This document shows positions 1,601 through 61,124 of a stretch of 64,000 nucleotides of DNA, one piece after another. A program made the position numbers and the translations under genes. Below the pieces are notes generated by a model, which worked only from the letters and a program-made list of their open reading frames with translations, had not been told where the DNA came from and ran no database searches. Each line of letters starts with the position of its first letter. The first letter of the stretch is position 1. The DNA is from a virus (Duplodnaviria; Caudoviricetes). The stretch covers positions 1,708 to 65,707 of IMG/VR virus record IMGVR_UViG_3300042525_000901; one strand, given 5' to 3'.

Positions 1601-1702
1601 AAAACGGCTGTAGCGTTTGCCCTGTAAATGTTTGGGCTGTTTTGAAAGCGTGCCACGTGATGGCATTACCCCTATAAAAGAAGATTACATGGTGCACGTG
1701 GT
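1601..1702 (-). repeat. dispersed palindromic element, copy 1
   Basis: core 1651-1702 is nearly the exact reverse complement of 11810-11862; module B with CGCTACAGCCGTTTT at 1601-1643. Confidence 0.95.
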
Positions 1703-1708
1703 AGAGAG

Positions 1709-2554
1709 TTATGAGGCGACTGCCTGATTTCCGGTTGTGAGAGTTGGGACAAAATCAACTCCGTCGTACGTTCCCAAAATTGCCCCGTCATCGGTGGCGA
1801 CAGATCCAGATGCCGGGTCAACGGCTAGGGTTAGCGACCCGGTACGAGCGAGATCCGCGATCGCCTCTGGTAACGTCCCGAGGTTTTCGTTTACCCACGC
1901 AAGCGCTACTTTCTCAGCATCAACCTGTTGACGTTCGGTTAGGGGTTCACCCTCGGGCGGTAAGTCCGGGGCGGCGGCATCCGCAATCAAGTCGGGAGGC
2001 GGTAGCTGTAGCAGCGTCATTGACAAATCAGCATCGGCCACCTCGCCGCCCCGCCACGCGATTTCGTTTACGCTGACCTCGGACAGCACAACAGGCGATA
2101 GCGTACGTCTCCCCATGACGAATGACAACGCAGGGGGCGCAAATCGACCATTAACCGGATCGGCCTCTGTGAGCGCCTGCAACGCCTTGATCGCACCCTC
2201 AAGCGACACGCCTGCCAACCAACCCCGCAACTTTACGCCTGAGAGCGAATATGAGCGGCTAGCGGAATGTTGAAACTGTACCGAAGGGTATCGGCTCGCA
2301 AGCGGAGCGGCTTCGGTGTATTTCGCGCCAAATGGTGACGAGATGGATTCAGGGTTGACGAGGAACACCCACGGAGTGATAGTCGAGCCTGGTGCGGGTT
2401 CAAACTCAATCAAACGCGCCTCTGCCTTGTCTTTGCTCGCAGTGGGATAATCAGCCCACGCTCCCTTGTTTGTCCAGCTTGGGAATTTTGGCAGGGATAG
2501 CGCGTTGCGGCTAGGGTCGATTTCCTTCGGTGGCTTATCGAAAGCAAATGTCAT
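1709..2554 (-). CDS. contractile-tail tube-initiator/CIS tube-like protein
   Basis: FLVNPESIS...VQFQHS.SRSYSL...APPALSFVMG...VVLSEVSV pattern of GpU/CIS-tube-like proteins. Confidence 0.6.
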   Translation of the reverse strand: MTFAFDKPPKEIDPSRNALSLPKFPSWTNKGAWADYPTASKDKAEARLIEFEPAPGSTITPWVFLVNPESISSPFGAKYTEAAPLASRYPSVQFQHSASRSYSLSGVKLRGWLAGVSLEGAIKALQALTEADPVNGRFAPPALSFVMGRRTLSPVVLSEVSVNEIAWRGGEVADADLSMTLLQLPPPDLIADAAAPDLPPEGEPLTERQQVDAEKVALAWVNENLGTLPEAIADLARTGSLTLAVDPASGSVATDDGAILGTYDGVDFVPTLTTGNQAVAS

Positions 2555-2838
2555 TATGTCTCGATGGTTTCGGCTTGCAGTACGAACTTGAATTTCGGGT
2601 TAGGAGGCTTGCGTTCCCATTCGGCGATCGCCTCCTGTAGGTAGTCTCGCGTCACGTCGGCTAGTTCGTTAAGCGCTTCAATGCTGAGTAGTTCCGAGCC
2701 GATCAAGTCTTCCATGTTGGTCGTCCTCAAGATGTCTTCATTGTCGTTGCCAGGACGCCACAACACCGACAGGTCACAACGTTGGCGCGATCGCTTGGAC
2801 AATGGATGTATTGCAATCTCGGGATATTCCAATGGCAC
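2554..2838 (-). CDS. hypothetical protein
   Basis: 94-aa ORF translationally coupled to the downstream tail gene. Confidence 0.55.
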   Translation of the reverse strand: MPLEYPEIAIHPLSKRSRQRCDLSVLWRPGNDNEDILRTTNMEDLIGSELLSIEALNELADVTRDYLQEAIAEWERKPPNPKFKFVLQAETIET

Positions 2839-7384: not shown

Positions 7385-9883
7385 CTAGTCCACCCGCTGT
7401 AATCGAAACACAGCGGCGGGGTAGGGCGTTCCCTCGAAGGAAATATCTTTGCTGTCGTAGAAGTTGTCGAACTCGATGTTTGAGTCCCACACAAAAGACG
7501 TGCGTGACGAGCTGTTTGAAATCACGCGACCATTGCCGGTAGCAATCCCAATATGATACGCACCATGCGAAAACACGATGTCGCCCGGTTGCGCTTCGCT
7601 TAGGGGAATTTGCACAGCGTTTCCGGGCTGCAAACACCAGTTATAAACAGTCGGGCAATGCACTGGATTAGCGGAGCCAATAACACCGCCGCCGGTCGCG
7701 TTGGCGATGATAGCGTTCACTGACCACGCGCACGCATTGGTTCCACCATCAGGCCCCGAACTCGTGTCAGTTCCGATATATGCCTGAGCCGCTGCGTAGA
7801 TGGCCGCGTTTAGGTCGGACGGTACATTGGTCGCTCCTGTCGTTGCTGCCCCCGTAGCGCCCGCGCTAGCCGCTGCTACCGCCTGTTCAGGCGCGGCTTT
7901 CTGTGGCGTATAAAACTCGATCGTCGTGACCGCATGACCGCCACCAATCTTGTGGCCGACGCGACCCACACGATACTCACGGGCGAACGCACGGCGGGCG
8001 TAGTCGTTGTTAAACAGTGCGGGGTCAAGGCCAAAAATTGAGCCGGGAACCAATGTCAAGACGGGGTAGGTCGTAAGCAGTTCCAGCGACCCGGTAACGC
8101 CCTTAACCCGGCGCGATTCGTTCGGGATTGCCTCCGCTGTGGCCGTGCCGTCGTCCGCTAAATCAGCCGCGCCAATCTTCTGGTTAGGCAGTCCTGTGAT
8201 CGATGTATCGAGTACCGGCGGCGGAACCTCAAGGATTAACTCAGCAGCCGATCGCGTTTCGGCTTGCGTCGGGGTTGGTTCGGCCTGGGGCGTGCCGTGC
8301 ACTGGCAAAGATTGCGAGCCCGTAGTAAATGTGCGAACTGCGTTACCCGTTCCCGTGGGGTCGTCTGTTTCGAGTACAACAATCTCAGAGGTTAGCGGGT
8401 TGATAGCTGCGCTTGCTTTCCCGGCTTCCGAGTCAGGCTCGCTTTCCGTTTCGAGTTGAGCGTCAGAAGTAACAGCGCCCGATCGCCGTTCGGTGATGGC
8501 CGAATCTGACCACGAAGCCGATATCAAAATGTCAGGCGTGACGACGAAGTTGGTGAAATGCGGAACCCACGGTTCAATCGTCAGCACCGCGCCATCATCC
8601 ACAACACGCAAACCATGAGCGCGACATTCTCTCAGGAGCAGTCGTAGATCGCTAATTCCGTCTTGAGATAGATAAGCGTACGTTGTCCCGTCGAATGGTT
8701 CACCGTTGGCGTCAACCATGTTGAGCGTCAGCCCGTGAGCTGCGCAAATGTTTTCAGCAAGCTGACGTAACGTGATGTTCTCGTAGGCCGTGTTTTTCTT
8801 TCGGCGATCAAGCAACCATCGAATTGACTGACCTTTGATCGTCAGCACGTCAGGTCGCATCGCCACGTCCAAGCCGGTATGAATGAAGTGATAGGAGATC
8901 GTTTGCTCTGCACTCTCAAAGCCCAGCTCTACGATGATTTCAGTACCAACATCGGCGGTTGGCGTTTCTATCGTTTCTGGGGGCGTTTCTGTGGCTGTGG
9001 TGGTATCTTCCGTTGTGGGTTCGGGTGTCGTTGGCGGCGGTGCAGCTGTGGTCGCTCCCGTGAGAGCTGACGCAAGGTCTCCTGATTGCAAGCGAGATAG
9101 GTAGTCGTCTGCATAGCCTGCGATCATCCCGCCATTAAGAGCAACGTCGCCATTGACGATCGCACGCGCCCCAACAAAATCAGCGCGCCCGCCTCCGATG
9201 TAGTCGCTTAGGCCAACGCCCGTGTAAGTGCCGTTGGCCATCCCGTGAACCAGGACATAGGCGCTCATGCTTGCGTTTGTGGCAAGTTGCTCAGGGTTGC
9301 CAATCAGGTCAACGCCTAGCAGGTCGGAATAACGCTGGTAGTTGATTCGCCCGGTTAGCTGCACATAGCCGCGTCCTTTGAAGCGCACGCCGTCACCGGG
9401 CTGTGTGTTGCCAAGGTCGCTACGCCCCTCGTACGCTTCACCGCTAGCGTATTCTTCAAGCGTATTGAATCGGTCGGACTCGTGGTAGGCGGTCGCCAAA
9501 ATGTAGGCAATTTGGTTAACGTCACTCACTCCCTGACGGAGACATTCAGCGATGATCGCCAATTCGTTCGACGCTTGCCCCTGCGTAAATCCAGACGAAC
9601 CGGGTGCGCCTACCGTTGCTTCACCCGTTCCGGCTGTTGCTGCTGGGGGTTGTGGATCTTGTAACAGCTCAGGGCTAACGATGATTCCGCCTTGAGCTTC
9701 GATCTCGACAAACTTTTCTCCCGAATACACCAGCCCCGGATCGTTTACCTCAATCGTGCAGGTAGCCGATCGCTTGTCTTCCCCCAAATCAACCGAGACG
9801 GACAAGAGGCGTTCGTCGCCAGTTTGGAGAACGTTCTGCCCAAACGTGACGCGAGTAAAAGTGACGCGCTCGTAATAACCCAC
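7385..9883 (-). CDS. baseplate hub/late-control-D-like protein with GH19 lysozyme-like and NlpC/P60-like domains
   Basis: YILATAYHES...YEGRSDLGNTQPGDGVRFKGRGYVQLTGR (GH19); YENITLRQLAENIC...QDGISDLRLL (gpD/gp27-like); CAWSV...PGDIVF...HIGI (NlpC/P60/CHAP-like). Confidence 0.8.
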   Translation of the reverse strand: MGYYERVTFTRVTFGQNVLQTGDERLLSVSVDLGEDKRSATCTIEVNDPGLVYSGEKFVEIEAQGGIIVSPELLQDPQPPAATAGTGEATVGAPGSSGFTQGQASNELAIIAECLRQGVSDVNQIAYILATAYHESDRFNTLEEYASGEAYEGRSDLGNTQPGDGVRFKGRGYVQLTGRINYQRYSDLLGVDLIGNPEQLATNASMSAYVLVHGMANGTYTGVGLSDYIGGGRADFVGARAIVNGDVALNGGMIAGYADDYLSRLQSGDLASALTGATTAAPPPTTPEPTTEDTTTATETPPETIETPTADVGTEIIVELGFESAEQTISYHFIHTGLDVAMRPDVLTIKGQSIRWLLDRRKKNTAYENITLRQLAENICAAHGLTLNMVDANGEPFDGTTYAYLSQDGISDLRLLLRECRAHGLRVVDDGAVLTIEPWVPHFTNFVVTPDILISASWSDSAITERRSGAVTSDAQLETESEPDSEAGKASAAINPLTSEIVVLETDDPTGTGNAVRTFTTGSQSLPVHGTPQAEPTPTQAETRSAAELILEVPPPVLDTSITGLPNQKIGAADLADDGTATAEAIPNESRRVKGVTGSLELLTTYPVLTLVPGSIFGLDPALFNNDYARRAFAREYRVGRVGHKIGGGHAVTTIEFYTPQKAAPEQAVAAASAGATGAATTGATNVPSDLNAAIYAAAQAYIGTDTSSGPDGGTNACAWSVNAIIANATGGGVIGSANPVHCPTVYNWCLQPGNAVQIPLSEAQPGDIVFSHGAYHIGIATGNGRVISNSSSRTSFVWDSNIEFDNFYDSKDISFEGTPYPAAVFRLQRVD

Positions 9884-9966
9884 CTATCGATCCTCGTGCC
9901 ACATCTTTCAACCCCTGAGAGAACTGAAGTGCGTTGTTATGATCCTACCTCGAAAAGATCTAGCTG

Positions 9967-10070
9967 TGCCACGTGCACCACATAATATCTTTTATATAAG
10001 GGTAAGGTCATCACGTGGCACGACGCCAAAAACGCCCAATCCTTTACCATTCATTCGTTACAGCCGTTTT
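9967..10070 (+). repeat. dispersed palindromic element, copy 2
   Basis: TGCCACGTGCACCACATAATATCTTTTATATAAGGGTAAGGTCATCACGTGGCA, then ...CGTTACAGCCGTTTT. Confidence 0.95.
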
Positions 10071-10587
10071 AGATGACGGTGAAGCGTCCCGAGTCGAGGC
10101 GGCGCTTTTGACCTTGAAAAGCGATGAAAACTTCGTATTCGATTGACCGCGTTCCTGGTTCAAGCGACGGAACCAGCGTGCTGAAATCGACGATCGCTTG
10201 GAACTCCAATCGCGATCGATCCAGGTGCAAGATCGACAAATCGTAATCATCGGTCGTAGAGTCGTTGTCCCACGTTCCTAGCAAAACACGCGGCTGTGTC
10301 GTGGCCTCGTACAGAGAAAGGGTGACAATCGCGTTGGTGAGATCCTGGCTGCGATCGGCTGCGGTAGCCGACAAAATCATCGCAGGGATTTCGGTACGGA
10401 GAAACGACGAATTACAGAGGGGAGCCATAGTACACAGATTGATTCGGAATGAGGGGACGGGAACGGTAGCGCAATCGCCACGCGGCGATCGGTGGGTGAC
10501 GGAGCAAGCCATAGTGGTCGGATTGTATTTGCTTCTATCATCCCCGTGGCTGACTTGAATTGAGTACAGGTCATAAATTTGGGACAT
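10069..10587 (-). CDS. hypothetical (probably virion-associated) protein
   Basis: 172-aa ORF among baseplate genes. Confidence 0.6.
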   Translation of the reverse strand: MSQIYDLYSIQVSHGDDRSKYNPTTMACSVTHRSPRGDCATVPVPSFRINLCTMAPLCNSSFLRTEIPAMILSATAADRSQDLTNAIVTLSLYEATTQPRVLLGTWDNDSTTDDYDLSILHLDRSRLEFQAIVDFSTLVPSLEPGTRSIEYEVFIAFQGQKRRLDSGRFTVI

Positions 10588-11366: not shown

Positions 11367-11807
11367 ATGCTGAAAATCACCGAGACCGGAGGCGATCGCG
11401 TTCGATTCAAAATCAACACAATGGCCGCGCGTGCCAAAAACCTGACCCCGGCTTACAAAACTTTTGGTGAGTATCGCGCCCGCCGCCATACGGCGATCTT
11501 CAACTCGCAGCGATCGCCCTACGATGAAAAGTGGACAGCGCTACAACCTGCCACGATCGCGAAGAAACGCAAGAAAGGATCTGACCCTCGCATCCTTCAT
11601 GACTCGCTAAAGATGCGAGGGTCGTTCTACACGAAGCCCACGGCACGCAAAATCGAATGGGGTTATTCAGTGCCCTACATCCGGTATCACGTCAAAGGGA
11701 CAAGACGCCTCCCCATTCGATCGCCGCTTGAGGATAAACGCGGGTTAGCGCCTCGCGACATGAAGCGCTACAAGAAACTTTTGGCAGAGTATTTGCTGAA
11801 CGACTAA
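11367..11807 (+). CDS. virion morphogenesis/tail completion protein (Mu gpG, P2 gpS-like)
   Basis: F.SQRSPY.EKWTALQPATIAKK...RILHDS..MRGS...YIRYH..GT..LPIR. Confidence 0.85.
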   Translation: MLKITETGGDRVRFKINTMAARAKNLTPAYKTFGEYRARRHTAIFNSQRSPYDEKWTALQPATIAKKRKKGSDPRILHDSLKMRGSFYTKPTARKIEWGYSVPYIRYHVKGTRRLPIRSPLEDKRGLAPRDMKRYKKLLAEYLLND

Positions 11808-11809: not shown

Positions 11810-11912
11810 TGCCACGTGCACCATGTAATCTTCTTTTATAGGGGTAATGCCATCACGTGGCACGCTTCCAAAATCCCCGCACATTCGACCCCGTAAACGT
11901 TACAGCCATTCT
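11810..11912 (+). repeat. dispersed palindromic element, copy 3
   Basis: TGCCACGTGCACCATGTAATCTTCTTTTATAGGGGTAATGCCATCACGTGGCA, then ...CGTTACAGCCATT. Confidence 0.95.
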
Positions 11913-11923: not shown

Positions 11924-12718
11924 ATGAGCGCAATTTTTAACGCACTGAATTCCGCCGAAACAACAGCCAAATCAAGCCAAGATCAAGGCGAGATCGGACG
12001 GGTCGCATCTGTCAGGATGGGGGTCGTTGTTGACAATGCAGATCCTCAAGGCTTACGTCGTGTTCGGGCGACCGAGGCAAGCACCGGGGGCACGGTGACG
12101 ACCGATTGGTTGTGGCGAGTCGTTGACGCCTACGACGATCCGCCACTACCCAAGCGCAACATGCTAATCGAGGTGATTTCGTTTGAGGGGAACCCACACG
12201 CACGCGCCTACCGGGTGATGTGCAACGCGCAAAACCGCCCGCTTGCCAAAGGCGATATCGTCAATGATTGGTATCGGATTGTTCCCGGCGATCGCGATAT
12301 GGACATCGGCAAAAACGAACACACCCGGATTGGTGGTGAAGAGTTCCGGGAGGTTGGCGGCGATCGCACGGTCACGATTGAAGCGGATGACCTGAAGCAA
12401 ATTGGCGATAGTTGGAAAGTTGAAGCAGGAAAGGATATCGAGTTTGTGGCAACTGGCAACATCAAGATCTCAACCAAAGGCGGTGCGGCGATCGTTCTCA
12501 CCGCGTCAGGCAATGCCTATATTGAATGCGCTGCTGGTTATCGCTTGACACTGGGCGGTTCGAGTTCGACGGCGATCGGCACAGACTTGGGAATGAACCT
12601 GGCAGGCGGCGTCTTTCGATTCGACAACCCTCAAGACGTGATCATCGATAGCAAGTCGGTGACGACGATCGGGGCGGTGGATAGCCGTGGCGATGCGCTC
12701 GTGACGCGGGGGTGGTAA
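11924..12718 (+). CDS. baseplate spike protein (gpV/gp5/VgrG-like)
   Basis: GVVVDNADPQGLRRVR OB-fold and 8-residue beta-helix repeats (IGKNEHTR IGGEEFRE VGGDRTVT). Confidence 0.85.
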   Translation: MSAIFNALNSAETTAKSSQDQGEIGRVASVRMGVVVDNADPQGLRRVRATEASTGGTVTTDWLWRVVDAYDDPPLPKRNMLIEVISFEGNPHARAYRVMCNAQNRPLAKGDIVNDWYRIVPGDRDMDIGKNEHTRIGGEEFREVGGDRTVTIEADDLKQIGDSWKVEAGKDIEFVATGNIKISTKGGAAIVLTASGNAYIECAAGYRLTLGGSSSTAIGTDLGMNLAGGVFRFDNPQDVIIDSKSVTTIGAVDSRGDALVTRGW

Positions 12719-14104: not shown

Positions 14105-14199
14105 AATGATGGAGTATTTTGATCGCCTAGCCAGGTGCTACCAACACCCGGCATTACCAAGACGATCTTCCTGCGTGAACACACCACGCAATCAACATG
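14098..14199 (+). promoter_or_regulatory. conserved structured 5' leader
   Basis: closely similar to reverse complement of 55547-55647, with compensatory stem changes. Confidence 0.8.
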
Positions 14200-14712
14200 A
14201 GTATATCAAAATCGCAGCGCGAAACCGTCCGGTTCTTTGACGGACTTTCTATCGATGGCTACATGATGCCAGATGGAAGCTTTCGAGTTTCCATGAGTGG
14301 GGCGAGCATCTTGATGGGTTTCGCTCCAAACTGGCTTGGACGATTAATAAGCCGGGGTGGTACAAACCTCAAAGCCTTACAGGGTTTAGGTTTCAGCGGA
14401 CAAACCGAGGAAACTGGTACATTTGCAGGAAAACCAGCTCAGACCATTAGCCTTAAGGATTTTCAGCGACTTCTCTTGTTTGGAGTGCAAGCGGGTAAGC
14501 CCCAAGCGATCGCCCTTCAAATGGCGCTGTCTGATATGGCGCTTGGGGATTTCTTTCGAGACGCTTTCGGGTTGCGTGCGCTATCAATCGAAGAAAAACG
14601 AGCGAAGTTTTACCAGGCATTCGCCGCAACACTCACTCGTCAAGATTGGCTCGACTGGGATCGTGGTGACGTTGAAGAGCTGGAAGACCATGCTCGCTTT
14701 TTAGGAGCCTAG
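14197..14712 (+). CDS. phage antirepressor-like DNA-binding protein (P63C-type N-terminus)
   Basis: LSIDGYMMPDGSFRVSMSG motif; shares leader with a KilA-N gene. Confidence 0.6.
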   Translation: MSISKSQRETVRFFDGLSIDGYMMPDGSFRVSMSGASILMGFAPNWLGRLISRGGTNLKALQGLGFSGQTEETGTFAGKPAQTISLKDFQRLLLFGVQAGKPQAIALQMALSDMALGDFFRDAFGLRALSIEEKRAKFYQAFAATLTRQDWLDWDRGDVEELEDHARFLGA

Positions 14713-19752: not shown

Positions 19753-21366
19753 TTGGGTATGGCCAAGATTGAGCGGACGATTCCTTGGGGTAACGGAAGC
19801 GACGTGGCGTGCGCTCCGATTTACGCGCGTCTCCCTGCGTACAACCGAGGCTACCGACGTTGGGGCGAAACGGAAGACGCCGATAATATCGCCAATGGTG
19901 AGGTGTCGCGATGGTTGACGATCGCAACGGATGAGCTTCTGTGCGAGCTGAAGGGCGATGTCACGGGGTTCTACGAAAACTATCTCGACCCGGAAACAGC
20001 TCGATCTGATGCACTCGATTGGCTTGCGATGCACCTCGGCTTCTCTGGTCAGTTTTGGCGTGCGGAATGGCCTGACGAAGTGAAGCGCGAAGTCCTAAAG
20101 CTGGGTGATGAGGCTTGGATCGGGCGTGGCTCCATCGACAAAATTGACACGCTGCTAGAAACCATCGGCGTCATCACCTGTGCCGATGTTTGGCCGCTTA
20201 ATGATACGGGACATCGTTCATATCGGTTGCCGTGGTTACGAGCCGATTTAGGCACTGCTGATAACTATTGGCGAGCTGATAACACCCACTACTTTATTCG
20301 TCTGCCGCTGACGACGAAACGCGGTGATGAGACATGGCAGTACGCAAAATGGATCGTGGACGGGTTTACTCCGGTCGGTGCGGTTGGTGTGCCGTGCTTC
20401 TGCAACTTCTACCCGGACAAATCCCACGCTGACGATCCGATCTTCGATGAAGTGTGGGAACAATCACGACCGATGGTCGATACATTCTGGGATGGTCGCG
20501 AGCCAAGCGATCGCCCTGACCTCGATTTTGCTGCGCTTCTAGAGTACCTAATCGCCGAGTTTGGTATCACCGCCCAGATTGTCACGCGAGAGCCGTTCCT
20601 GGCTGACGTGACGACCGCTGATAGCCGATTTGTTGATATTGGCTGGTGGGGACATCCGTTCCCTGAAAATGCGTCAGGCGCGATCGGGACTCGAACCAAT
20701 TACGAACCGGCTCCCAACGTGTTCGTGGTATTTCCAACTTTGGTAACGTTTCGCGATGACACATGGGAAACAGTCAAGCGGTTAATCGAGCTGTACCGAC
20801 CTTACGAGTATTTCGATCCGCTCGCCATGATCGGCCACGGCGTGTTCTTGCCTGAGTTGAGTCATGCTAACGCTCCGATGCTTTGGGATGAACCGGCGGA
20901 TGAACAGTTGTGGCAAGACGCTAACGACGCGGTGAAAGCGTACTGGCTTGCCAATCCATTTGAGGTGGGCGATCGTCAAGACCTCGCGTTCGGCTATCTC
21001 CTGAAGGCGGTGCTAACCGCGCTGGACTTGCCTGGACAAATCGCCGTCTACGACCCTGCGATATTTGAGACGGGATGGTCGGGGCATCCGGATCAGGCGA
21101 ACGCATCAGGGAGCGTTGGCACTCGATCCAATTACGAACCAGCTCCGAATGTGTTTGTGATTTTCCCCGAGGCGATCGCGGTCGGTGACGAAACTTGGGA
21201 AAGCGTGAAGCAAATCGTCTACTGGTTCCGCCCTTACGACTTCTATCATCCCGACTACATGCTCGGATACGGAATCGAATATCCCGATCGCCTCACGCCT
21301 ACGATGCCAGTCTTGACCACTGATCCGACCCTGGGTGACGTGCCGATTATCTCTTCCAACCCCTGA
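19753..21366 (+). CDS. baseplate/tail protein I (P2 gpI-like) with duplicated C-terminal module
   Basis: YLDPETARSDALDWLA..LG..W...W....KR motif; two copies of GW.GHP...NASG..GTR.NYEPAPNVFV.FP. Confidence 0.8.
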   Translation: MGMAKIERTIPWGNGSDVACAPIYARLPAYNRGYRRWGETEDADNIANGEVSRWLTIATDELLCELKGDVTGFYENYLDPETARSDALDWLAMHLGFSGQFWRAEWPDEVKREVLKLGDEAWIGRGSIDKIDTLLETIGVITCADVWPLNDTGHRSYRLPWLRADLGTADNYWRADNTHYFIRLPLTTKRGDETWQYAKWIVDGFTPVGAVGVPCFCNFYPDKSHADDPIFDEVWEQSRPMVDTFWDGREPSDRPDLDFAALLEYLIAEFGITAQIVTREPFLADVTTADSRFVDIGWWGHPFPENASGAIGTRTNYEPAPNVFVVFPTLVTFRDDTWETVKRLIELYRPYEYFDPLAMIGHGVFLPELSHANAPMLWDEPADEQLWQDANDAVKAYWLANPFEVGDRQDLAFGYLLKAVLTALDLPGQIAVYDPAIFETGWSGHPDQANASGSVGTRSNYEPAPNVFVIFPEAIAVGDETWESVKQIVYWFRPYDFYHPDYMLGYGIEYPDRLTPTMPVLTTDPTLGDVPIISSNP

Positions 21367-21408
21367 GAGGATTGAAGTGTGTTGCCACAATCCTACTGCG
21401 ATTATCTA

Positions 21409-21510
21409 GCCACGTGCACCATGTAATTCTTTTATATAGGGGTAATGCCATCACGTGGCACGCTTCCAAAATCGCCGGAACGCTTACAGTATAAAAGCTA
21501 CAGCCGTTTG
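21409..21510 (+). repeat. dispersed palindromic element, copy 4
   Basis: GCCACGTGCACCATGTAATTCTTTTATATAGGGGTAATGCCATCACGTGGCA, then ...GCTACAGCCGTTT. Confidence 0.95.
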
Positions 21511-21813: not shown

Positions 21814-21869
21814 AGCCACAAAAAAAACGCCGCTGGTGTTGCGGCGTGGTGGAAGGATTTTGGCGTAAC

Positions 21870-44265: not shown

Positions 44266-45027
44266 TCACCCCATCGGCATAGTTGGGATTTTGAGCGTTG
44301 AGATCATCTGCTCAGTGATGATCGATGCCGCCGGTAACATGCCTGCCCACACTAGGCTAACTTCTGAGCTTGCGTACAGCCCCCGGTAAGTTGAGTAAGG
44401 CTGAATTGAGAACCCGGCCTCATTCCACATCTCTCGGACGGACGAATCTTTCATTGACGGGTGAAACGGCACGTGGCCTTTCTCGGCGCAGCCTTGGGCG
44501 TGATACGACGTGCCACACTCAGGGCATTCAAGATGTTCAATGCGGAACCCGCCCAAGCTAACCTTTTGGACTCCGTAGCGCATCGCCTCAAGTAGTGGCG
44601 AATTCGAGGGAAGAAACGCACTCGCGAGGCATCCCCACGCCCCGCCCTCGGCACGGACGATCGCGCGGTTTTGTTCGCCATAGCCCGCCAAGTCAAGGTA
44701 CGGCGTCGGGTCGATTTGAATCGCGATCGCGTGAAAGATGATTCCGTGAATCGCTTCGACTTCCCACTCGTGATCAATCATGAATCGATTGCCGACTACG
44801 AGCTTTGCCATTTTCTCAATTTCGGTTCTATCCCATCGTTCGGCGTTGTGATTAAGCAGAGTATCCGCCACCAGAATCGGCACGATCGCGACGTCACTTG
44901 CTCCGTACGGTTCAGCATTAATCGGGCGGTATTGATTGATGAGCGCCAACGCCTCCTGACTAACTGCGTCAGAAGTTTCGTCATCTTCACTAACTCGACT
45001 TTCGGGGAATGGCTGCAAGGTGGGCAT
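44266..45027 (-). CDS. prohead protease with Zn-ribbon insertion
   Basis: FMIDHEW, KVSLGG, CPECG...C..H, SEVSLV.AG of HK97-type proteases. Confidence 0.75.
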   Translation of the reverse strand: MPTLQPFPESRVSEDDETSDAVSQEALALINQYRPINAEPYGASDVAIVPILVADTLLNHNAERWDRTEIEKMAKLVVGNRFMIDHEWEVEAIHGIIFHAIAIQIDPTPYLDLAGYGEQNRAIVRAEGGAWGCLASAFLPSNSPLLEAMRYGVQKVSLGGFRIEHLECPECGTSYHAQGCAEKGHVPFHPSMKDSSVREMWNEAGFSIQPYSTYRGLYASSEVSLVWAGMLPAASIITEQMISTLKIPTMPMG

Positions 45028-45171: not shown

Positions 45172-45271
45172 AAAAACGTTAGACAGCTTGAGGCGTAAGC
45201 AGCGCAGCCATTTTAGCTTTGTGCCACGTGAACCACTTACCCTTATATAAAGGTATATACGTGTCATGGCA
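45172..45271 (-). repeat. dispersed palindromic element, copy 6 (diverged)
   Basis: TGCCACGTGAACCACTTACCCTTATATAAAGGTATATACGTGTCATGGCA at 45222-45271, between divergent protease and portal genes. Confidence 0.85.
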
Positions 45272-47924: not shown

Positions 47925-47925
47925 G

Positions 47926-49214: not shown

Positions 49215-49796
49215 TTAGGATATTTTCTGCCAACGATAACCCGCACATTTGTAGCCATACCGAAAGCTTCTCGCTAATGTTGATTTATGAACATAAACAT
49301 CTTTGGCCGCCTCCGCAATGGTTGGGTACACTTTTCCTGTGTCCAAGTTCTTTACGGGAGTTCTGCGAGGGGACTGATCTAAGACGTATTGCACGTAATT
49401 TTCGCCCAAAAAAGCTGCGACAGCTTCTCGGTCTGCTCCGCACAGCAGAAAAGGATTTCGCTTCGCCACTCTGCGAACTGCTGTTGTTGAAACGCCCTTG
49501 TCATAGCCCAGCTCTGCTCGGGATGTGTAGCGCTGCAATGCGTGGTAAGCCTGGTTTCGGCTTACCCCAAGAATTCGCGACCACTGAGCGACGGAAAACC
49601 GATCAATCTGCGGACACACAACACGGACATCCTCAGCTTTTGAGACTACCTGAGTGAGCGTCCGATCGTGCCCATCGCGATCGGGGTTTTTCTTTTGCCA
49701 TTGCAGAAACAATCTCACGGCCTCCTGCGTGCCGTGGTAGCACACAAGGTCGTATATTTTATCCACCTCATCGGCTGTCCAACGCTTTCGAGCCAT
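49215..49796 (-). CDS. DNA-binding protein with C-terminal NUMOD1/IENR1-like domain
   Basis: VKNLDTGKVYPTIAEAAK...KCAGYRW. Confidence 0.7.
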   Translation of the reverse strand: MARKRWTADEVDKIYDLVCYHGTQEAVRLFLQWQKKNPDRDGHDRTLTQVVSKAEDVRVVCPQIDRFSVAQWSRILGVSRNQAYHALQRYTSRAELGYDKGVSTTAVRRVAKRNPFLLCGADREAVAAFLGENYVQYVLDQSPRRTPVKNLDTGKVYPTIAEAAKDVYVHKSTLARSFRYGYKCAGYRWQKIS

Positions 49797-49969
49797 CCTG
49801 CTTAACCCCAAAAGGGCGAAATATACACAACAAACACATTGTACGTTAATGCGCGTCGGGAGTGCTGAAATAAGTGCTGGACGTTGCCGTAGTTGAGTTG
49901 TGATGACAGGTCAAAGCATTCCAGGCGATTGCGTCAATATATAGATATCAAACATTTCAACGTGAGTAG

Positions 49970-55069: not shown

Positions 55070-55549
55070 TCAATCGTATGGAGTCACGTCATCCATTGCC
55101 GCGTCCCATGAGTTTTGGCGATGCCAAAGCATATCCCGGCGCAGTTCGTCGCGATTGTACTCGGATTGATTGAGCGCGTGCTTGAGTGAAGACAACTCTT
55201 CCTGTAGTTCGACTTTGCCTTGGGTTAGCAGTTTCTCGATCATGGAGTAAACCCAAACCTCGAACGCAGCATTAAGCCACGCAGCCAGTTTTAAGGCGAC
55301 TCGCGGATGAACCCATGTACCTTGCAGTTGCGGCGTACCACCTTGAACTTGCTGGATCAATTCCGTTATGGGAATTCCCATAACGGGCGAAAGTGCCTCT
55401 AGGTAAGCCTTTGTGGATTTCAATCGAAGAAAGTCAGCAAACAATCGACCATGACGCTGACACATTTCTGTTGCGTTCCAGTACCCATCAGAACGAATGG
55501 TGATGGGTTTGCCGCTGTCGAAATACTCGCGAAAAACTGATAAACTCAT
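55070..55549 (-). CDS. KilA-N domain protein
   Basis: DGYWNATEMC...DFLRL...QGTWVHPRVALKLAAWL. Confidence 0.9.
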   Translation of the reverse strand: MSLSVFREYFDSGKPITIRSDGYWNATEMCQRHGRLFADFLRLKSTKAYLEALSPVMGIPITELIQQVQGGTPQLQGTWVHPRVALKLAAWLNAAFEVWVYSMIEKLLTQGKVELQEELSSLKHALNQSEYNRDELRRDMLWHRQNSWDAAMDDVTPYD

Positions 55550-55647
55550 ATTGATTGCGTGGTTGGTACACGCATGACGATCGCCTTGGTAATGCCGGAT
55601 GCTGTCAACATCTGGCTAGGCGATCAAATACTTCATAATTTTACCAC
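55547..55647 (-). promoter_or_regulatory. conserved structured 5' leader
   Basis: reverse complement matches 14098-14199. Confidence 0.8.
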
Positions 55648-56093: not shown

Positions 56094-56687
56094 TTAATCC
56101 AGCAATCCAAGTTGACGATGTTGATGATCAGGCGACGACGTTTCGTGAGGGTACGCGACCAGGCAACCGTTCACCCGTGAACCGCTGCCGGTTGGGGATT
56201 TGAGGCGAGAAAATGTGTAAGCAAACAACCCCGTGGCTTCAGCACCCCAGTCGCAATCACTCCCGCACCAAAGCGCAAACAGGGCGTCACGCGGGTTTGA
56301 GTCTCCATTGTTTTCGTAATTGATACGCCCGCACGGGAACGCAATTGCATGGCAATAAGCAGAGGAAAACATCCACGCTGACGATTTATTGTGCAGCAGT
56401 CCGGGCAGGGTTAGCGTGATAGCCACGTCAACGACGCCCAAGTCCAAATACTTCCAAAGCTCATCGACAAAGGTTGACCCTTTGCTATATGGCGGGTTCA
56501 TGAACACTGTATCTGACTCGCTTAGATACGGAGTCCAGTCTGTTGTGAATGTGTTTTGTTCCTGAGTGATTTCGCTATAGGCGATCAAACCCTGCCCGTT
56601 TCCAGTGGGGTCAAGCGCGATATCGCCTACCACTTCCTTTACCGCATTGACCACCCACGTCGGGGTGTAACTTTCGTCTCGCGCCAT
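56094..56687 (-). CDS. phage DNA N6-adenine methyltransferase (Dam-like)
   Basis: DESYTP.WV, LDP, VFMNPPYS, GRINY. Confidence 0.85.
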   Translation of the reverse strand: MARDESYTPTWVVNAVKEVVGDIALDPTGNGQGLIAYSEITQEQNTFTTDWTPYLSESDTVFMNPPYSKGSTFVDELWKYLDLGVVDVAITLTLPGLLHNKSSAWMFSSAYCHAIAFPCGRINYENNGDSNPRDALFALWCGSDCDWGAEATGLFAYTFSRLKSPTGSGSRVNGCLVAYPHETSSPDHQHRQLGLLD

Positions 56688-56797
56688 TTCAAAACCTCGC
56701 ATTGTTTCCCTTAATTATACACAAACAACACAAATGGTTTTGATTGAAATTCGGGGTGATTTTTAGGGGTCGCGCCAGTTGTGCTGAAAATCCCAGA

Positions 56798-56900
56798 GGA
56801 TCGGCCAGGACGTTTGCTGCGTAAATGCTTGAGCGATTTCGAGGGTGTGCCACGTGAACCCTTTACCCCTATATAAAAGAATTACATGGTGCATGTGGCA
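56798..56900 (-). repeat. dispersed palindromic element, copy 7
   Basis: TGCCACGTGAACCCTTTACCCCTATATAAAAGAATTACATGGTGCATGTGGCA at 56848-56900. Confidence 0.93.
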
Positions 56901-56941
56901 AATATAATGGGGTAAGACAAGAACACAAAAACAGGTAAAGC

Positions 56942-57370
56942 ATGAGAAGACTTTTGGTTGGGGTGACGAGTTTGGCGCTACTGGCGATCGCGGGGTGCGA
57001 CATGGTAGGCGAGCCACGGCAAAGCGCCTCTGATGTGGAATTGCATCGCGTTCGACATCACGCCCTGAAAGTTCCGGTGATGGTTGAGTATGCCGAATTA
57101 TTGGCAAGCGTTCAGGAGGCAGGAGGCGTAACGCAATGTCAGCGTCATTTGCCAATCTTGCGAAGCGCGATCGTCTCGTCCTATCGCGAGGTTTCTCAAC
57201 TGCCTAGCTCGTGGCAACAGCGACGGGTGCAAACCATTTACTCAGTGATGACGCTATGCGTTCCCGACTCGTGTGCAAGCGACGTGAACTTAAATCGGTG
57301 CGCTGATGCTCTAGCAGATCTGACCTATTTGTTCGGCGAAGACCCTCGGTTTGATCAAGGGGATGTATGA
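56942..57370 (+). CDS. lipoprotein
   Basis: MRR plus hydrophobic stretch and IAGC lipobox. Confidence 0.7.
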   Translation: MRRLLVGVTSLALLAIAGCDMVGEPRQSASDVELHRVRHHALKVPVMVEYAELLASVQEAGGVTQCQRHLPILRSAIVSSYREVSQLPSSWQQRRVQTIYSVMTLCVPDSCASDVNLNRCADALADLTYLFGEDPRFDQGDV

Positions 57371-57690
57371 GCGAAGTCGAATCAGTAATATTTGCCAAGC
57401 TGTCGCGTGAGGCTTTGCCGTTTTCCGTCACGACCGGGCGATCGCTATCCAACCTCGAATTTGCTCGCCACGCGGTCGCTCAGTGTTACATCGAGGGACA
57501 GCTAAAGCCCATCTTTCTAGAATTGTCAGGAGTCATCACGGACGACGAAGTTCAAGTAAACGAATTGCGCGATCGCGTCATCGCTGGACTCAGTGATCCG
57601 CAAATTATCCTTAATTTTGTCTCGCAAGTGAAGGCAAAACTGGACAGCGTTCACCCTAGTTGTGAGTGGAGTCCACTGATCATCGATTGA
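57367..57690 (+). CDS. hypothetical protein
   Basis: coupled to lipoprotein gene. Confidence 0.55.
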   Translation: MSEVESVIFAKLSREALPFSVTTGRSLSNLEFARHAVAQCYIEGQLKPIFLELSGVITDDEVQVNELRDRVIAGLSDPQIILNFVSQVKAKLDSVHPSCEWSPLIID

Positions 57691-57708
57691 TTCGTGGCCA
57701 CAAATTCA

Positions 57709-57809
57709 AAAACGGCTGTGACGTAATCACCCAAAGCGTCACAGCCGTTTTCTATGCCTGCCACGTGACCTCATTACCCTTATATAAAAGAATTACATGG
57801 TGCATGTGG
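57709..57809 (-). repeat. dispersed palindromic element, copy 8 (perfect module-B palindrome)
   Basis: AAAACGGCTGTGACG-N13-CGTCACAGCCGTTTT, then TGCCACGTGACCTCATTACCCTTATATAAAAGAATTACATGGTGCATGTGG. Confidence 0.93.
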
Positions 57810-57887
57810 ATCTCGATTGGCCGACTCTCGCGACAGGTCAGATCAACCCAGCGAAGCGAGTGAAGATGTAATCACCAACCTTGATCG

Positions 57888-60800
57888 GTGATCCGTGTGG
57901 CTGAAACTCAGAGCTTTATTCTTGAGGCAATAGATCGAGCGTCCGCACCTTTGCGACGGGTGAGCGAAGCGTTCGGTCGCGTGAGCGCAGCCGCCGAACA
58001 AATGGGCGCTCGTGCGGGGCGGGCTGCTAGCGGGGTGGGCAAGACGTTCGACGAGATGGCAGACGCGGCACAGCGATCGGGCGCAAGGATGCGAGATGTT
58101 GGTGCAAGCCTGACGTTAGGGCTGACCGCGCCGTTAGTTGGGGCGGGCGCGTTGGCGGTTAAAGCTTTTGCGGATTACGAACATTCGCTAGCATCGCTCT
58201 CTAAGGCCACAGGGTTAACCGGGGCTGACCTAGACACGATGGGTCAAAAGTTCCGGGAGATCGCGTCTAGCGACCTCCCAGTAGCCGCTAATGACCTACT
58301 AGCGATCGCGACTGAGGGGGCAAAGATGGGGATTGCGAGTACCGAGCTAGAGCGCTTCACTCGCCTAACCGCAACAATGGCGACGGCGTTTGATATTTCA
58401 GCTCAGGACGTGACCGGCCAAACAGCCAAAGTTGCCAACCAATTTAAGATCCTTAACGCGGCAACAGGCGAGCTTGATTTCGCTCGAATGGAGACGTTTG
58501 GGGATGCGGTCAACAATATGGCCGACAATATGGCGACTTCGGAGGCAAAAATCCTCGAAGCTGTTTCTCGGATGGCAGGTATCACACAACCATTAGGCTT
58601 TGACGAAAACCAAACGGCGGCGTTGGCTGCGGGCTTCACTGCGTTAGGGATGGAGGCGGACGTGGCTAGCCGCGCGGTAAACAGCTCCATGCAACGACTA
58701 GCAAATGCCCCGGCGTTGACGGAAGACGCGGTCGCCGCATTGGAAGAGATGGGCTATTCCGCAGAGGATTTACAAAAGCAGTTTTTGGACGGTAAGGGGC
58801 CAGAGGCTTATATTGGATTCCTTCAGAAAATTTCAGGCATGGGCTCAAAAGCTATCCCATTGCTGACGGAGATTTTCGGGACTGGGTTTTCCGACGAGAT
58901 GGCACGCGGCGGCGTTGGCATCGAGCAATTCTCGAAAGCGTTTGGCCTGATGGAAGAGTCGATCTCGGGTGGCGGTGCAACGATGCAAAAAAGCCTAGAA
59001 ATTATGGGCGGCACAAGCCAAGCTGAATTCCAGAAACTCAAAAGCGCCGCGCTAGACGTTTTGGTCGTGTTCGGTCGGCTCCTAGCAGAAGCCGTCCTCC
59101 CCCTAGCAAAAGGTTTGCGCCAAGCGTTGATCGCGATGTCAGAATTTGGGCAAACAAACCCCGGTCTCGCCAAAGTCATTGTTTCGATTTTGGCGATCGC
59201 CGCTGCGATCGGCCCCGTCGTTTTCGCCATTGGTACGGTGCAAGGTGCGTTTGCCGCGCTAGGTGTGTTTCTGTCCGGTGGGTTTGGAGCGGCGCTGGTA
59301 GGTGTTGTCACGTCATTGACTGGCACACTAGCCGTAGGGCTGACAATGTTTGCTCAGTTTTCAGCGGGGGCGATCGCGGCGATTTTAAGGTTCACTGTGA
59401 CGGGGGCGGCTCACGTCTTGGGATTTGCGATCAAAGCAACAACCGCGATCGCCCAGTTTGCAATCAAAGCGACGACTTCGCTAATTCAGTTTGCGGCACA
59501 GGGCGTCGCCGCGATCGCGCGGTTTGCCGCTTCGTCTATCGTTAGCCTTGCCCAATTCGCGCTTCGGGGGGTAGCCTCCGTCGCAAGCTTCGTGGTTAGT
59601 GCGTTAGCTCAACTGGGAACTTTTGTCGTGCAGGGAATCCTTGGGATTAGCCGCTTCGCTACTCAGGGGGCTATCGCATTAGTTCAGTTTGCCGCCAAAG
59701 GCGCGGCGGCGATCGGGTGGTTTGTGGTTGATTCCGCCTTGGCGATCGCAGAATTCGTGCTTACCGGGCTAGTAGAGATTGGAAAGTTTGTCGCTCAATC
59801 TCTCGTAAGCCTTGGGAAATTTGCGGTGCAAGGTGCAATAGCGCTAGGCAAGTTTGCGATCAATGGCGTCCTCGCGATAGCCCGCTTTGTTGCTACTTCC
59901 ACAATAAGCCTTGCTTCGTTTGCGGCACAGGGGGCAATATCAATTGCAAAGTTTGTAGCATCAGGAACTTTGAGCCTTGTCAAATTTGCGGCACAAGCGG
60001 CTATTACGTTCGCCCCGCTACTCCTGGGCGCAGCAGCTTTGGCGGCGGCTGGTTATCTTGTTTACAAAAACTGGGATGGGATTTCAGAGGTACTATCACG
60101 GGCTGAACTACCGAAGGCAGACTCAGCCAAACTCTCGGCCAAGATTGGTATCGAGGTCGAGAATAGCGCCGATATCGTAGAGGCATTATTCCAAAAGCCA
60201 TTGCAAACGATTGGAGCCATATCTAGCGCTTACCTTGGAGCGTTCTCTGATATCTGGAATGGCTTTTGGTCGAACCTCACCAGCTCAATTCAGATGATTG
60301 GACTTAACATCCAATTTCAGCTTACCTCCTGGGGCGTGGCGTTTTCGGCGTTTGTTGCCGGAGTAGCAAGCTGGGTCACAAGTCTAGGCGCATCGATCAC
60401 TGCGGTCTTTGCTGGGATTGTGGCGGCGTTTGCGGCGCTGCAATCATCAGCGATCGCCAAGGCTTCTGAGATAACTACAACGGTCGTAAATGCTTTCGAG
60501 GGAATACGCGCAACGTTCGACGGACTGCGGGAAGGCGCGATCGCCAAAGTTGCCGAAATTCGCGACGCCATTACAAACGCCTTTGACGGCGTGAAGTCTC
60601 AAATCCAGTCGGCACTATCATCAATCCCCAACCCATTCGCTAACCTACGAATACCCTCGTTCTCGCGGGGTGGAAGCGTCGGAAACAGCGCTCAAGGTAA
60701 TATCCCTCAAAGTGTCGCCGGATTGCTGTCAGCAGCTCAAAGAGAGGCGCGTGCTATGCCTGCTGGATCAGCGCTAACCGTGGCCAACACTTCAGAGCTA

Positions 60801-61016
60801 ATTCTGAACCGCGCCCAATACGGTAGCCTTCTAAGTCAACGCGCCCGACCGATCGCGATCGCGCAACGCGAAAACCAGATCGCCTTCGCTACGTTTGCAC
60901 CGACCATCAACCTGAATGTTGCTCAAACCGGCCAGGTTGATCCTCGCCAAATCGCAAAACAGGTGATGGCCGAATTAGATCGGGAGTACCGCCAATGGTC
61001 AGCGGGCATGGCCTAA
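57888..61016 (+). CDS. tail tape measure protein (TP901-type core)
   Basis: LTLGLTAPL, TMP core, about 20 eleven-residue Phe-anchored repeats (approx. 59355-60010). Confidence 0.95.
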   Translation: MIRVAETQSFILEAIDRASAPLRRVSEAFGRVSAAAEQMGARAGRAASGVGKTFDEMADAAQRSGARMRDVGASLTLGLTAPLVGAGALAVKAFADYEHSLASLSKATGLTGADLDTMGQKFREIASSDLPVAANDLLAIATEGAKMGIASTELERFTRLTATMATAFDISAQDVTGQTAKVANQFKILNAATGELDFARMETFGDAVNNMADNMATSEAKILEAVSRMAGITQPLGFDENQTAALAAGFTALGMEADVASRAVNSSMQRLANAPALTEDAVAALEEMGYSAEDLQKQFLDGKGPEAYIGFLQKISGMGSKAIPLLTEIFGTGFSDEMARGGVGIEQFSKAFGLMEESISGGGATMQKSLEIMGGTSQAEFQKLKSAALDVLVVFGRLLAEAVLPLAKGLRQALIAMSEFGQTNPGLAKVIVSILAIAAAIGPVVFAIGTVQGAFAALGVFLSGGFGAALVGVVTSLTGTLAVGLTMFAQFSAGAIAAILRFTVTGAAHVLGFAIKATTAIAQFAIKATTSLIQFAAQGVAAIARFAASSIVSLAQFALRGVASVASFVVSALAQLGTFVVQGILGISRFATQGAIALVQFAAKGAAAIGWFVVDSALAIAEFVLTGLVEIGKFVAQSLVSLGKFAVQGAIALGKFAINGVLAIARFVATSTISLASFAAQGAISIAKFVASGTLSLVKFAAQAAITFAPLLLGAAALAAAGYLVYKNWDGISEVLSRAELPKADSAKLSAKIGIEVENSADIVEALFQKPLQTIGAISSAYLGAFSDIWNGFWSNLTSSIQMIGLNIQFQLTSWGVAFSAFVAGVASWVTSLGASITAVFAGIVAAFAALQSSAIAKASEITTTVVNAFEGIRATFDGLREGAIAKVAEIRDAITNAFDGVKSQIQSALSSIPNPFANLRIPSFSRGGSVGNSAQGNIPQSVAGLLSAAQREARAMPAGSALTVANTSELILNRAQYGSLLSQRARPIAIAQRENQIAFATFAPTINLNVAQTGQVDPRQIAKQVMAELDREYRQWSAGMA

Positions 61017-61021
61017 CTTTC

Positions 61022-61124
61022 TGCCACGTGCACCATGTAATCTTCTTTTATAGGGGGAAAGGCATCACGTGGCACGCTTCCAAAATCGCTCAAAGATTCA
61101 CGCTACAAACGTTACAGCCGTTTC
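61022..61124 (+). repeat. dispersed palindromic element, copy 9
   Basis: TGCCACGTGCACCATGTAATCTTCTTTTATAGGGGGAAAGGCATCACGTGGCA, then ...CGTTACAGCCGTTT. Confidence 0.95.

Follow-up and report, generated by a model that had tools for sequence, protein, structure and literature searches.

Nine dispersed copies, designated E1 to E9, of an element of about 105 bp were found in the window analysed here, a 64,000-nt stretch covering positions 1,708 to 65,707 of the IMG/VR virus record IMGVR_UViG_3300042525_000901 (Caudoviricetes). Each copy combines a core, in which two inverted half-sites flank an AT-rich TATA centre, with a looser second palindrome termed module B. The tail genes of this phage are scattered over both strands, and the elements stand at the ends of several that have been displaced. 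With somewhat less than even confidence, we interpret the element as a portable linker for regulation and recombination, bound as double-stranded DNA by a protein and similar to the PeSL motifs (promoter plus stem-loop) of T4-type phages. A factor of phage or host origin would bind the half-sites and control transcription that starts at the TATA centre or passes it, and a cassette at the joints of virion-gene blocks would place tail genes scattered over both strands under joint control. Homology of about 100 bp in both orientations would at the same time make the copies substrates for homologous recombination, by which blocks of genes could have been excised, inverted and re-inserted.

The copies were collected with a profile built from all nine (nhmmer), and all coordinates are those of the window. 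On the 65,707-bp contig (C575) the profile matched exactly nine copies, with E values from 1.9e-17 to 4e-28, and the same nine were recovered by repeat search, alignment and profile search, with a length of 103–110 bp per copy (Table 1). Profile searches detected no further copy, either on this contig or among the remaining 639 of its metagenomic bin, and no match in 180 related loci (2.2 Mb). The exact core pattern had 0 matches in IMG/VR, the GTDB species genomes (185,579) and the JGI metagenomes, and the sole blastn match in GenBank phages and PLSDB was a 22-nt chance hit to a Listeria plasmid. BLAST searches with the 4.5-kb stretch that carries E7–E9, against 401 cyanobacterial genomes and against 201 genomes near the bin genome, gave matches of no more than 38 bp and none to the element. 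De novo repeat searches in five related loci found no dispersed intergenic repeat family. The 9-mer box by itself is not enriched (23 sites with up to one mismatch, compared with 17.9 expected), so that the significance lies in the composite element.

The core spans 52 bp and comprises the left box TGCCACGTG, CACCATGTAAT, a T-rich stretch, TATA, GGGGTAA, about 5 nt and the right box CACGTGGCA. Its two half-sites each contain CACGTG, with the boxes 36 bp apart, the right one stronger and the left one weaker. Module B begins about 7 nt past the core and has an A run and CGC on its left, CAGCCGTTTT on its right and a variable middle, the whole forming a looser palindrome flanked by A and T runs. 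Mean pairwise identity between copies is 81% in the core, 57% in module B and 31–34% in the flanks. Between E1 and E3, identity is 98% for the core and 64% for module B, which indicates that the copies are old and the core constrained. The core is thus under selection, and its uniformity between copies may be held by that selection or by gene conversion confined to the core.

Eight of the nine copies fall between genes, although intergenic DNA makes up just 12.3% of the window (P about 4e-7). E1, E3, E4 and E9 are co-oriented with the gene ending just upstream, E2 and E8 are anti-oriented, each within a head-to-tail gene pair, divergent genes flank E6 and E7, E5 is antisense within rep, and E4 alone stands in a convergent context. 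The early and replication region has no copies except E5 and E6. An earlier reading, made from the letters of the window (the sequence-only reading), had placed nine copies at these positions, with orientations independent of gene direction, inverted boxes around an AT-rich TATA centre and virion genes as neighbours. The nhmmer envelopes, the alignment and the gene context bear this description out. Besides the convergent context being confined to E4, two parts of it need qualification. Of the paired boxes, the right one, ACGTGGCA, is identical in all nine copies and the left one is degenerate in E5–E8. Module B is present as described but is far less well conserved between copies than the core. 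The profile scan called for by that reading returned only the nine on the contig, with none in the bin, the 2.2 Mb of related loci or four public collections. A generic repeat scattered through the host chromosome, which would have spoken against a phage system, was accordingly absent from the collections searched, the bin itself not being the host.

The pattern of change in the core points to a double-stranded protein site rather than a selected hairpin. None of the eight outer-stem pairs shows a compensatory change, four pairs vary only by breaking, and covariation does not exceed that of shuffled alignments (99 of 500 shuffles reach the observed level). Uncompensated, pair-breaking changes in the left box imply that the constraint acts on double-stranded DNA bound by a protein and not on a hairpin RNA. 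An RNA-level element, whether a processing or stability hairpin (as in the RNase III sites of T7 or repetitive extragenic palindromes, REPs), a terminator or a source of small RNAs of about 75 nt that begin at the TATA centre and end in module B's T run, is therefore given a low probability. The core can be folded into a 9-bp stem and an inner G.U-rich stem, the latter pairing on the element's own strand only, and in all head-to-tail cases the element lies 0–42 nt after the upstream stop. Module B of E8 forms a perfect 16-bp hairpin flanked by A/T runs (fold −44.3 kcal/mol, z −4.1) that is strong, bidirectional and terminator-like. E6 is covered by an RNA-library contig (45134–45630). Here and below, RNA evidence consists of assembled RNA-library contigs, from which no start, end or strand can be read, and uncovered parts were not used as evidence. 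Against such an element, six of the nine single-copy folds are no better than those of shuffled sequence (|z| <1.2), the module B hairpin is moderate or partly terminator-like in E4–E6, weak in E1 and E2 and absent in E3, no U run follows the core, Rfam has no match to the element at E values up to 1, and copies occur in both orientations within operons.

To place the element in relation to gene order, all called proteins of the window were compared with related loci of more than 12 kb, some of which are one contig present in two collections. In each of the 98 related loci that gave a hit, such tail genes as were detected kept to a single strand and to the same collinear order: N ... sheath, tube, c, TMP (tape measure), A, (B), C, (M23), D, F, J, fibre. 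Adjacencies were TMP–A in 44 loci, A–C in 29, C–M23 in 27, M23–D in 23, F–J in 20, D–F in 18, A–B in 12 and B–C in 11. In this phage the module is in at least six pieces on both strands: A and C are inverted at the left end, F and N are placed ahead of D, M23 is located within the early region, and TMP is followed directly by B. The elements adjoin the displaced genes: A and the fibre gene are followed by E1 and E4, respectively, C is preceded by E2, N and D are separated by E3, and TMP has E8 on one side and E9 on the other. An element is held by 6 of the 11 gaps adjoining conserved tail genes and by 2 of the 31 others (Fisher p 0.002). The comparison of synteny breakpoints proposed by the sequence-only reading thus places elements at the ends of genes that are displaced relative to the 98 loci, though not at every breakpoint. 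Closer relatives are indicated by sheath homologues with 92%, 85% and 61% identity (P0001, P0002 and P0004). Of the related loci, L010 (62%) spans only 2.8 kb and L009 (100%) covers no element. A Dam/KilA-N block is also inserted, between the tube-side genes and the open reading frames (ORFs) upstream of the tape-measure gene.

Several copies share sequence with one another beyond the element. The left flank of E2 matches sequence upstream of E4 (21352–21407), namely the fibre gene's last codons, its stop and its 3′ flank, with 80% identity over 50 nt, and the E2–E4 alignment extends over 166 nt, starting 63 nt before the element. Similarity between E4 and E9 extends for about 400 nt and includes a phased TGCG array, and E1 and E9 have a common stop-codon context. 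Flanks held in common imply that these copies travelled together with their surroundings, and E4 with its array looks like a duplicate of E9 with its array, minus the downstream gene. In both arrays TTGCGC/CTGCG motifs recur about every 11 bp, a pattern also readable as iteron-like units of 22–23 bp, and both arrays lie 70–95 bp past a plus-strand element. Small gene blocks are still flanked by direct pairs of copies (E7/E8 and E2/E3) and by inverted pairs (E5/E6 and E8/E9), and the phage encodes a RuvC-like resolvase and an exonuclease. In an ancestor with the order TMP–E–A–E–B, where E is the element, recombination between direct copies would remove A and one element to leave TMP–E9–B, and A–E1 could have been re-inserted elsewhere. 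The element may have caused the rearrangements, or it may have been kept at each displaced block since each such block needs its own control site. Three functions had been proposed in the sequence-only reading, namely multiple origins, replication-coupled late activation and recombination hot spots that shuffled the virion genes, and only the last has gained evidence here, from the collinear relatives, the scrambled order in this phage and the shared flanks. Elsewhere, an intergenic segment of 91 nt is shared between 14118–14208 and 55538–55628 (85%, complementary), ahead of unrelated genes on opposite strands, and is a further sign of leader cassettes that recombine.

Shared flanks also bear on whether the element is simply selfish, that is, a miniature inverted-repeat transposable element (MITE) or homing-type miniature element inserted in intergenic sites and in the rep linker with no phage function. 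Sharp boundaries at about 105–110 bp, the presence of both orientations, the occupation of entire gaps by E1 and E3, one in-frame copy inside a gene and weak NUMOD1 and helix-turn-helix (HTH) hits in the ORF at 49215–49811 would all be in keeping with such an origin. The similarity of E2 to E4 and of E4 to E9 continues past the element's ends, which implies copying by segmental recombination rather than precise transposition. By inspection, neither terminal inverted repeats nor target-site duplications were seen; no transposase was found; the core is far better conserved than module B; and no copies occur in the 185,579 species genomes, IMG/VR, JGI metagenomes, GenBank phages or PLSDB. A selfish element is accordingly considered highly improbable.

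It was also considered whether the scrambled order could be an artefact of assembly, the repeats having led to false joins. In an independent DNA run, the Logan contigs are interrupted at E7, E8 and E9, and among the contigs listed none bridges these three copies. The cores are only 52 bp long, with unique flanks and module B sequences that ordinary reads span, and E6 is bridged by a DNA contig (44001–46563) as well as by the RNA-library contig. The relic flank of E2 and the arrays shared by E4 and E9 are real sequence features, and the nine copies are real regardless of the order, leaving an artefact extremely improbable.

Among known systems, the closest likeness is to the PeSLs of T4-type phages (RB49/phi1, PST/T4 and nt-1/KVP40), which are described in the cited passages as motifs of about 100 bp, combining a promoter and a stem-loop, that mediate module shuffling (PMC2839356, PMC4122927). 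As there described, PeSLs share with the present element an intergenic, composite structure with about 100 bp conserved, dispersal in many copies flanking gene cassettes, an AT-rich promoter-like part overlapped by a stem-loop that includes G-T pairs, and a proposed role as homologous-recombination sites that shuffle modules while carrying regulatory signals. PeSLs differ in having strong sigma-70 −35 and −10 boxes with tested promoter and terminator activity, whereas the present element lacks a canonical −10. They point in the same direction as their genes, while orientation is mixed here, with E2 and E8 anti-oriented in head-to-tail pairs. They also occupy early hyperplastic regions beside ORFans, in contrast to the late virion genes and the CACGTG boxes 36 bp apart of this phage. 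The lack of a strong sigma-70 promoter and of a consistent orientation, together with the late virion genes and CACGTG half-sites, indicates that the element is not itself a PeSL; we suggest, with the same reserve as for the interpretation as a whole, that it is a functional counterpart of these cassettes. The earlier statement that no such arrangement had been described in a phage was therefore too strong, and it is countered as well by the dispersed centromere sites of phage N15, one of them in repA, in the passages cited (PMC2847241, PMC3235114).

If the linker interpretation is correct, a contractile-tail module has been cut up and spread on both strands and is yet coordinated via one portable cassette of about 105 bp. 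The PeSL idea would then extend to an unrelated cyanobacterial myovirus with a plasmid-type replicon, to late structural genes and to a non-canonical, orientation-independent site. The 52-bp core would in addition offer a defined DNA target for finding a new cyanophage regulator. The data show directly that the nine copies exist, that their core is selected and has no compensated pairing, that they stand at the ends of displaced tail genes and that some of them have flanks in common; that a protein binds the element, that it acts as a promoter or operator and that it brought about the rearrangements is inferred.

Promoter activity of the element is suggested by several features of its centre, in which a −10-like TATA run is followed by GGGG, as in the phage's own early −10 and discriminator; the early promoters have TATAAT and then GG.G, resembling the TATATA-GGGG of the element. 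Read from the sequence, the reverse strand of every copy carries GTGCCA-17 nt-TATAAA or TATATA. The pattern T[AT]TATA[GA][GA] occurs only in the nine elements, once within a gene and once 32 nt upstream of the ORF at 49970. The 637-aa product of this ORF gave no hit in Pfam or PHROGs, and the gene is presumed by position alone to encode the major capsid protein. RNA-library contigs from two runs of one study begin at 49959–49961, 15–17 nt past this upstream motif. The conserved CATGTAAT motif of E7 supplies the −35 of a sigma-70-like promoter whose −10 (TATAAT, then GGGGTAA) falls just outside the element, and TATAATGGGGTAA at 56903 is the sole exact extra copy of the centre motif.

A number of observations weigh against the linker interpretation, above all against promoter activity. 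By eye, the TAnnnT hexamer is absent from the centre on both strands, which makes an ordinary host sigma-70 promoter unlikely, and a scan for the sigma-70 consensus called only the site at the flank of E7 and one site in E2. Orientation is inconsistent, as the forward direction would serve Z, D, B, 44266 and Dam and the reverse direction C, portal, 56942 and TMP, and for E1, E2, E3, E8 and E9 one direction is always antisense. Downstream of E7, Dam has an early-type promoter of its own; the late operon with the highest expression (capsid–sheath–tube) and most divergent late regions are without an element; and the RNA-library contig at E6 runs straight across the copy. Several breakpoints, namely those 5′ of A and F and 3′ of C and D, have no element, and the joins across E7–E9 are not bridged by independent assembly among the contigs listed. 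Pfam and PHROGs scans of about 70 ORFs revealed no binding protein, sigma factor or clear regulator, with weak HTH hits only. If the element is a promoter, it must be factor-dependent and bidirectional; alternatively it may be an operator or an enhancer-type site.

Other classes of site were considered and set aside. The resemblance to a T7-type phage RNA polymerase promoter (TATAGGG) was rejected since the large ORFs include no single-subunit polymerase. A sigma-54 promoter, to which TGGCAC in the right box would correspond, lacks a −12 element here, and cyanobacteria are not known to have sigma-54. NtcA and HLR1 sites have a different spacing. The number of copies and their imperfect symmetry do not fit a protelomerase target, and the R′/R″ motifs of an integron attC site are absent. 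An apparent joint from 62767 to 44001 and loose ends at 56847, 56879 and 56899 were attributed to cross-mapping of other repeat copies and not to recombinants.

Inverted boxes around an AT-rich centre also recall replication origins. Under this reading the copies would be binding sites of Rep, a CyRepA1-family initiator of primase/helicase type; the origin would be at E5, by analogy with lambda O and N15 repA, and the remaining eight would serve as secondary origins, as sites of Rep loading or as enhancers coupling late transcription to replication. We regard it as unlikely. The AT-rich centre of about 16–20 bp ranks in the top 0.01–0.9% of 16–20-bp windows in AT content, but the stretch is short and unremarkable at 40 bp (rank 0.1–6.5%). 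E5 is the sole intragenic copy and encodes residues about 1108–1142 of Rep, an acidic, Ser/Thr-rich linker in the 3′ part of the gene. The region is hypervariable among six CyRepA1-family homologues, with an alignment too poor there to judge insertion, and E5 is itself among the most degenerate copies. In N15, according to the passage cited, replication starts within repA, which also contains a centromere site (PMC2847241). Rep is of a comparable type, with tblastn matches to RepA of VP882 and phiHAP-1 and a homologue (P0035) that carries the NCBI name 'plasmid replication protein, CyRepA1 family'. Among the ORFs scanned, the phage has one for a DnaN clamp of its own and none for a polymerase; two copies have an iteron-like phased array downstream, and placement is independent of orientation.

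The link between Rep and the element consists of the layout and of a match of Rep to Pfam Herpes_ori_bp (28.6 bits, residues 427–583 against profile positions 45–202 of 820). This match is limited to motifs of the helicase core and so says nothing on DNA recognition. For the C-terminal region of Rep, the searches returned no homologue besides itself and no ESM Atlas lead. No box is present in the rep promoter region, and GC skew is uninformative over the contig, with no origin-like switch. In herpes simplex virus (HSV) oriS, inverted initiator boxes bound by UL9 surround an AT-rich spacer, and the hr elements of baculoviruses, which are imperfect palindromes at dispersed sites, have both enhancer activity and, in transient assays, origin activity. 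Inverted initiator-type boxes and an AT-rich spacer are common to these and the present element, but they belong to eukaryotic viruses, the similarity of Rep to UL9 does not extend past the helicase core and the AT stretch here is only about 16–20 bp. Phages T4 and T7 have several dispersed origins, each with a promoter and an AT-rich unwinding region; these use ordinary phage promoters and R-loops and not a repeated 105-bp palindromic cassette with a plasmid-type Rep. Nine origins in 64 kb, eight of them at virion-gene joints, would have no known precedent among bacterial viruses.

In an extension of the origin reading that we consider improbable, the elements would be loading sites for the CyRepA1-type primase-helicase and the DnaN clamp, with the primary origin at E5. 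The eight other copies, at virion-gene joints, would function as secondary origins or as enhancers for clamp entry, activating late genes only after the start of replication. Such sites would be a bacterial-virus counterpart, in a phage-plasmid, of baculovirus hr elements and of T4 clamp-coupled late transcription. An origin would also supply the binding site of a CyRepA1-family initiator, for which the cited passages of the CyRepA papers leave the origin sequence undefined: the binding sequence is not given (PMC10079941), and in the pSYSA passages the origin is placed only within a 3.6-kb ssr7036–slr7037 fragment (PMC9978351).

Partition or architectural sites would likewise be double-stranded protein sites. 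The element could be a centromere or operator of a ParB/KorB/SopB-like or nucleoid-associated protein, as in N15 and RK2, or a gyrase or HU site of the kind found in REPs, bacterial interspersed mosaic elements (BIMEs) and RIPs, with a bendable centre as in P1 parS. The KorB OB sites of RK2 double as global transcriptional operators. REPs and BIMEs are chromosomal, occur in hundreds of copies and have hairpins kept by pairing; the RIP/RIB class of enterobacteria binds integration host factor (IHF). REP/BIME sequences and P1 parS bind architectural proteins. They resemble the element in their units of about 100 bp, inverted arms, bendable AT-rich centre and intergenic position, often after stops and in either orientation, and in P1 parS the arms are arranged around an IHF site (PMC5016525, passage cited). 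Unlike REP/BIME sequences, the element occurs in nine copies in one phage and shows no compensated pairing. In the passages cited, dispersed centromere-like sites are found in N15, RK2 and pSM19035 (PMC3235114, PMC5016525). Those of N15 (sopC-like) and RK2 (KorB OB) share with the element scattered, orientation-independent, palindromic double-stranded protein sites in a phage-plasmid-type genome, with one copy in the initiator gene (PMC2847241, PMC3235114, PMC5016525).

An orientation-independent, intergenic site with two arms around an AT-rich centre, a copy inside rep, as for the N15 centromere site in repA (PMC2847241, passage cited), and a plasmid-type replicon would agree with partition. 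In six-frame searches, however, ParB_N (PF02195) and ParA (AAA_31, PF13614) matched other contigs of the bin and not C575. The N15 and RK2 sites are short simple palindromes of 13–16 bp, with no TATA centre or second module and with a ParA/ParB-type operon, in contrast to the continuous constraint over 52 bp found here, and of the copies only E5 and E6 fall in the early and replication region. A partner gene could lie beyond the right end, where the contig is incomplete. A partition or architectural role is judged decidedly unlikely.

Table 1. Copies of the element and neighbouring features (window coordinates)
Feature	Position	Strand	Context	nhmmer E
E1	1601–1703	−	Directly after stop of gene A	3e-27
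E2	9967–10070	+	Anti-oriented between two minus-strand genes	1e-24
E3	11810–11912	+	Occupies 116-nt gap between N and D	3e-25
E4	21408–21509	+	42 nt after stop of fibre gene (19753–21366), then phased TGCG array	4e-28
E5	37302–37404	+	Antisense in rep; left box degenerate	2e-22
E6	45173–45271	−	Most diverged copy	2e-17
E7	56799–56900	−	Between Dam/KilA-N minus-strand block and two small plus-strand ORFs	8e-26
E8	57709–57810	−	Anti-oriented, between 57367–57690 and tape-measure gene (57888–61016)	1e-24
E9	61022–61123	+	5 nt after tape-measure stop, then second phased TGCG array and gene B (61409–61870)	6e-28
Gene Z	878–1561	−	Starts 36 nt past module B of E1	
Gene A	1709–2554	−	Ends at E1	
Gene C	7385–9883	−	Starts 84 nt from left box of E2	
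ORF beside E2	10069–10587	−	Stop abutted by module B of E2	
Gene N	11367–11807		Tail completion; beside E3	
Gene D	11924–12718		Baseplate hub; beside E3	
rep	36995–40726	−	CyRepA1-family primase/helicase-type initiator; candidate binder in origin reading	
ORF beside E6	44266–45027	−	First gene of leftward replication block	
Portal gene	45304 (start)	+	29 nt from left box of E6	
Two small ORFs	56942–57690	+	Upstream of tape-measure gene; presumed tail chaperones	
Extra left flank of E2	9904–9966	+	Matches fibre-gene last codons, stop and 3′ flank upstream of E4	
Phased TGCG/TTGCGC array	21604–21813		Downstream of E4; composite unit in common with E9	
Second phased array	61196–61394		Downstream of E9; sequence and flank similarity	
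Sigma-70-like promoter at E7	56881–56908	+	10/12 match; points at 56942	
TGTGTATAAT promoters	24628, 31699, 36929, 43712, 49820, 56714, 62739	−	Pattern scan	

The contig is the longest in a 4.8-Mb bin and was found to be mis-binned, the bin genome not being cyanobacterial, on the basis of its GC content (53%, compared with 68% for the bin), its density of GCGATCGC sites (1.17 per kb on the contig and 0.26 in the bin), the lack of any phycobilisome protein in the bin at 92% completeness and the absence of a 4.5-kb stretch of the contig from 200 relatives of the bin genome. Genes for a sheath, baseplate wedge, tape measure, portal and split large terminase are those of a myovirus, and the replication block is of plasmid type, with the CyRepA1-family Rep, a Dda-like helicase and DnaN. 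All 20 sheath relatives in species genomes are cyanobacterial, mostly from filamentous genera (Nostoc, Calothrix and Leptolyngbya), and the phage was found in many lake-water metagenomes. By its gene content the contig is a myovirus with cyanobacterial signatures. At its left end (window 1–630, C575:1–2337) lies a long GGDEF-EAL protein of diguanylate cyclase/phosphodiesterase type, with motifs read by eye and a terminator at 844–865; the gene could be a phage auxiliary gene or the host flank of an integrated prophage. At the right end, a tandem 54-bp repeat (63869–63976) encodes a repeated peptide in a fibre-like gene (62824 onwards) that is cut by the contig end, which shows the genome to be incomplete there.

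Outside the elements CACGTG occurs at 6 sites, compared with about 16–20 expected. This is uninformative as to a special avoidance of the motif, since 17 of the 64 palindromic hexamers are absent altogether from the 64 kb. Twelve listed among these had 7–15 expected copies each, and the missing hexamers include GGATCC, CTGCAG, CCCGGG and GGCGCC. Their absence indicates very strong restriction-site avoidance. The phage encodes a C5 methylase (33667–34671) and a Dam-type methylase (56094–56702).

Extended −10 promoters of the form TGTGTATAAT (up to one mismatch) were found seven times, compared with 1.8 expected, all on the minus strand and ahead of early genes, implying that early and late genes are largely split by strand. 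The minus-strand ORF at 49215–49811 (198 aa), with weak HTH_23 and NUMOD1 hits, has an early-type promoter and is divergent from the presumed capsid gene; its product could be a regulator or a relic of the DNA-binding domain of a homing endonuclease. A GC-rich hairpin followed by T8 on the minus strand at 21820–21855, facing the E4 array, probably terminates the leftward early operon. After 57005 and 60865, RNA-library contigs from two runs diverge from the reference for more than 180 nt, which suggests a strain variant with different sequence inside the 56942–57370 ORF and the tape-measure gene.

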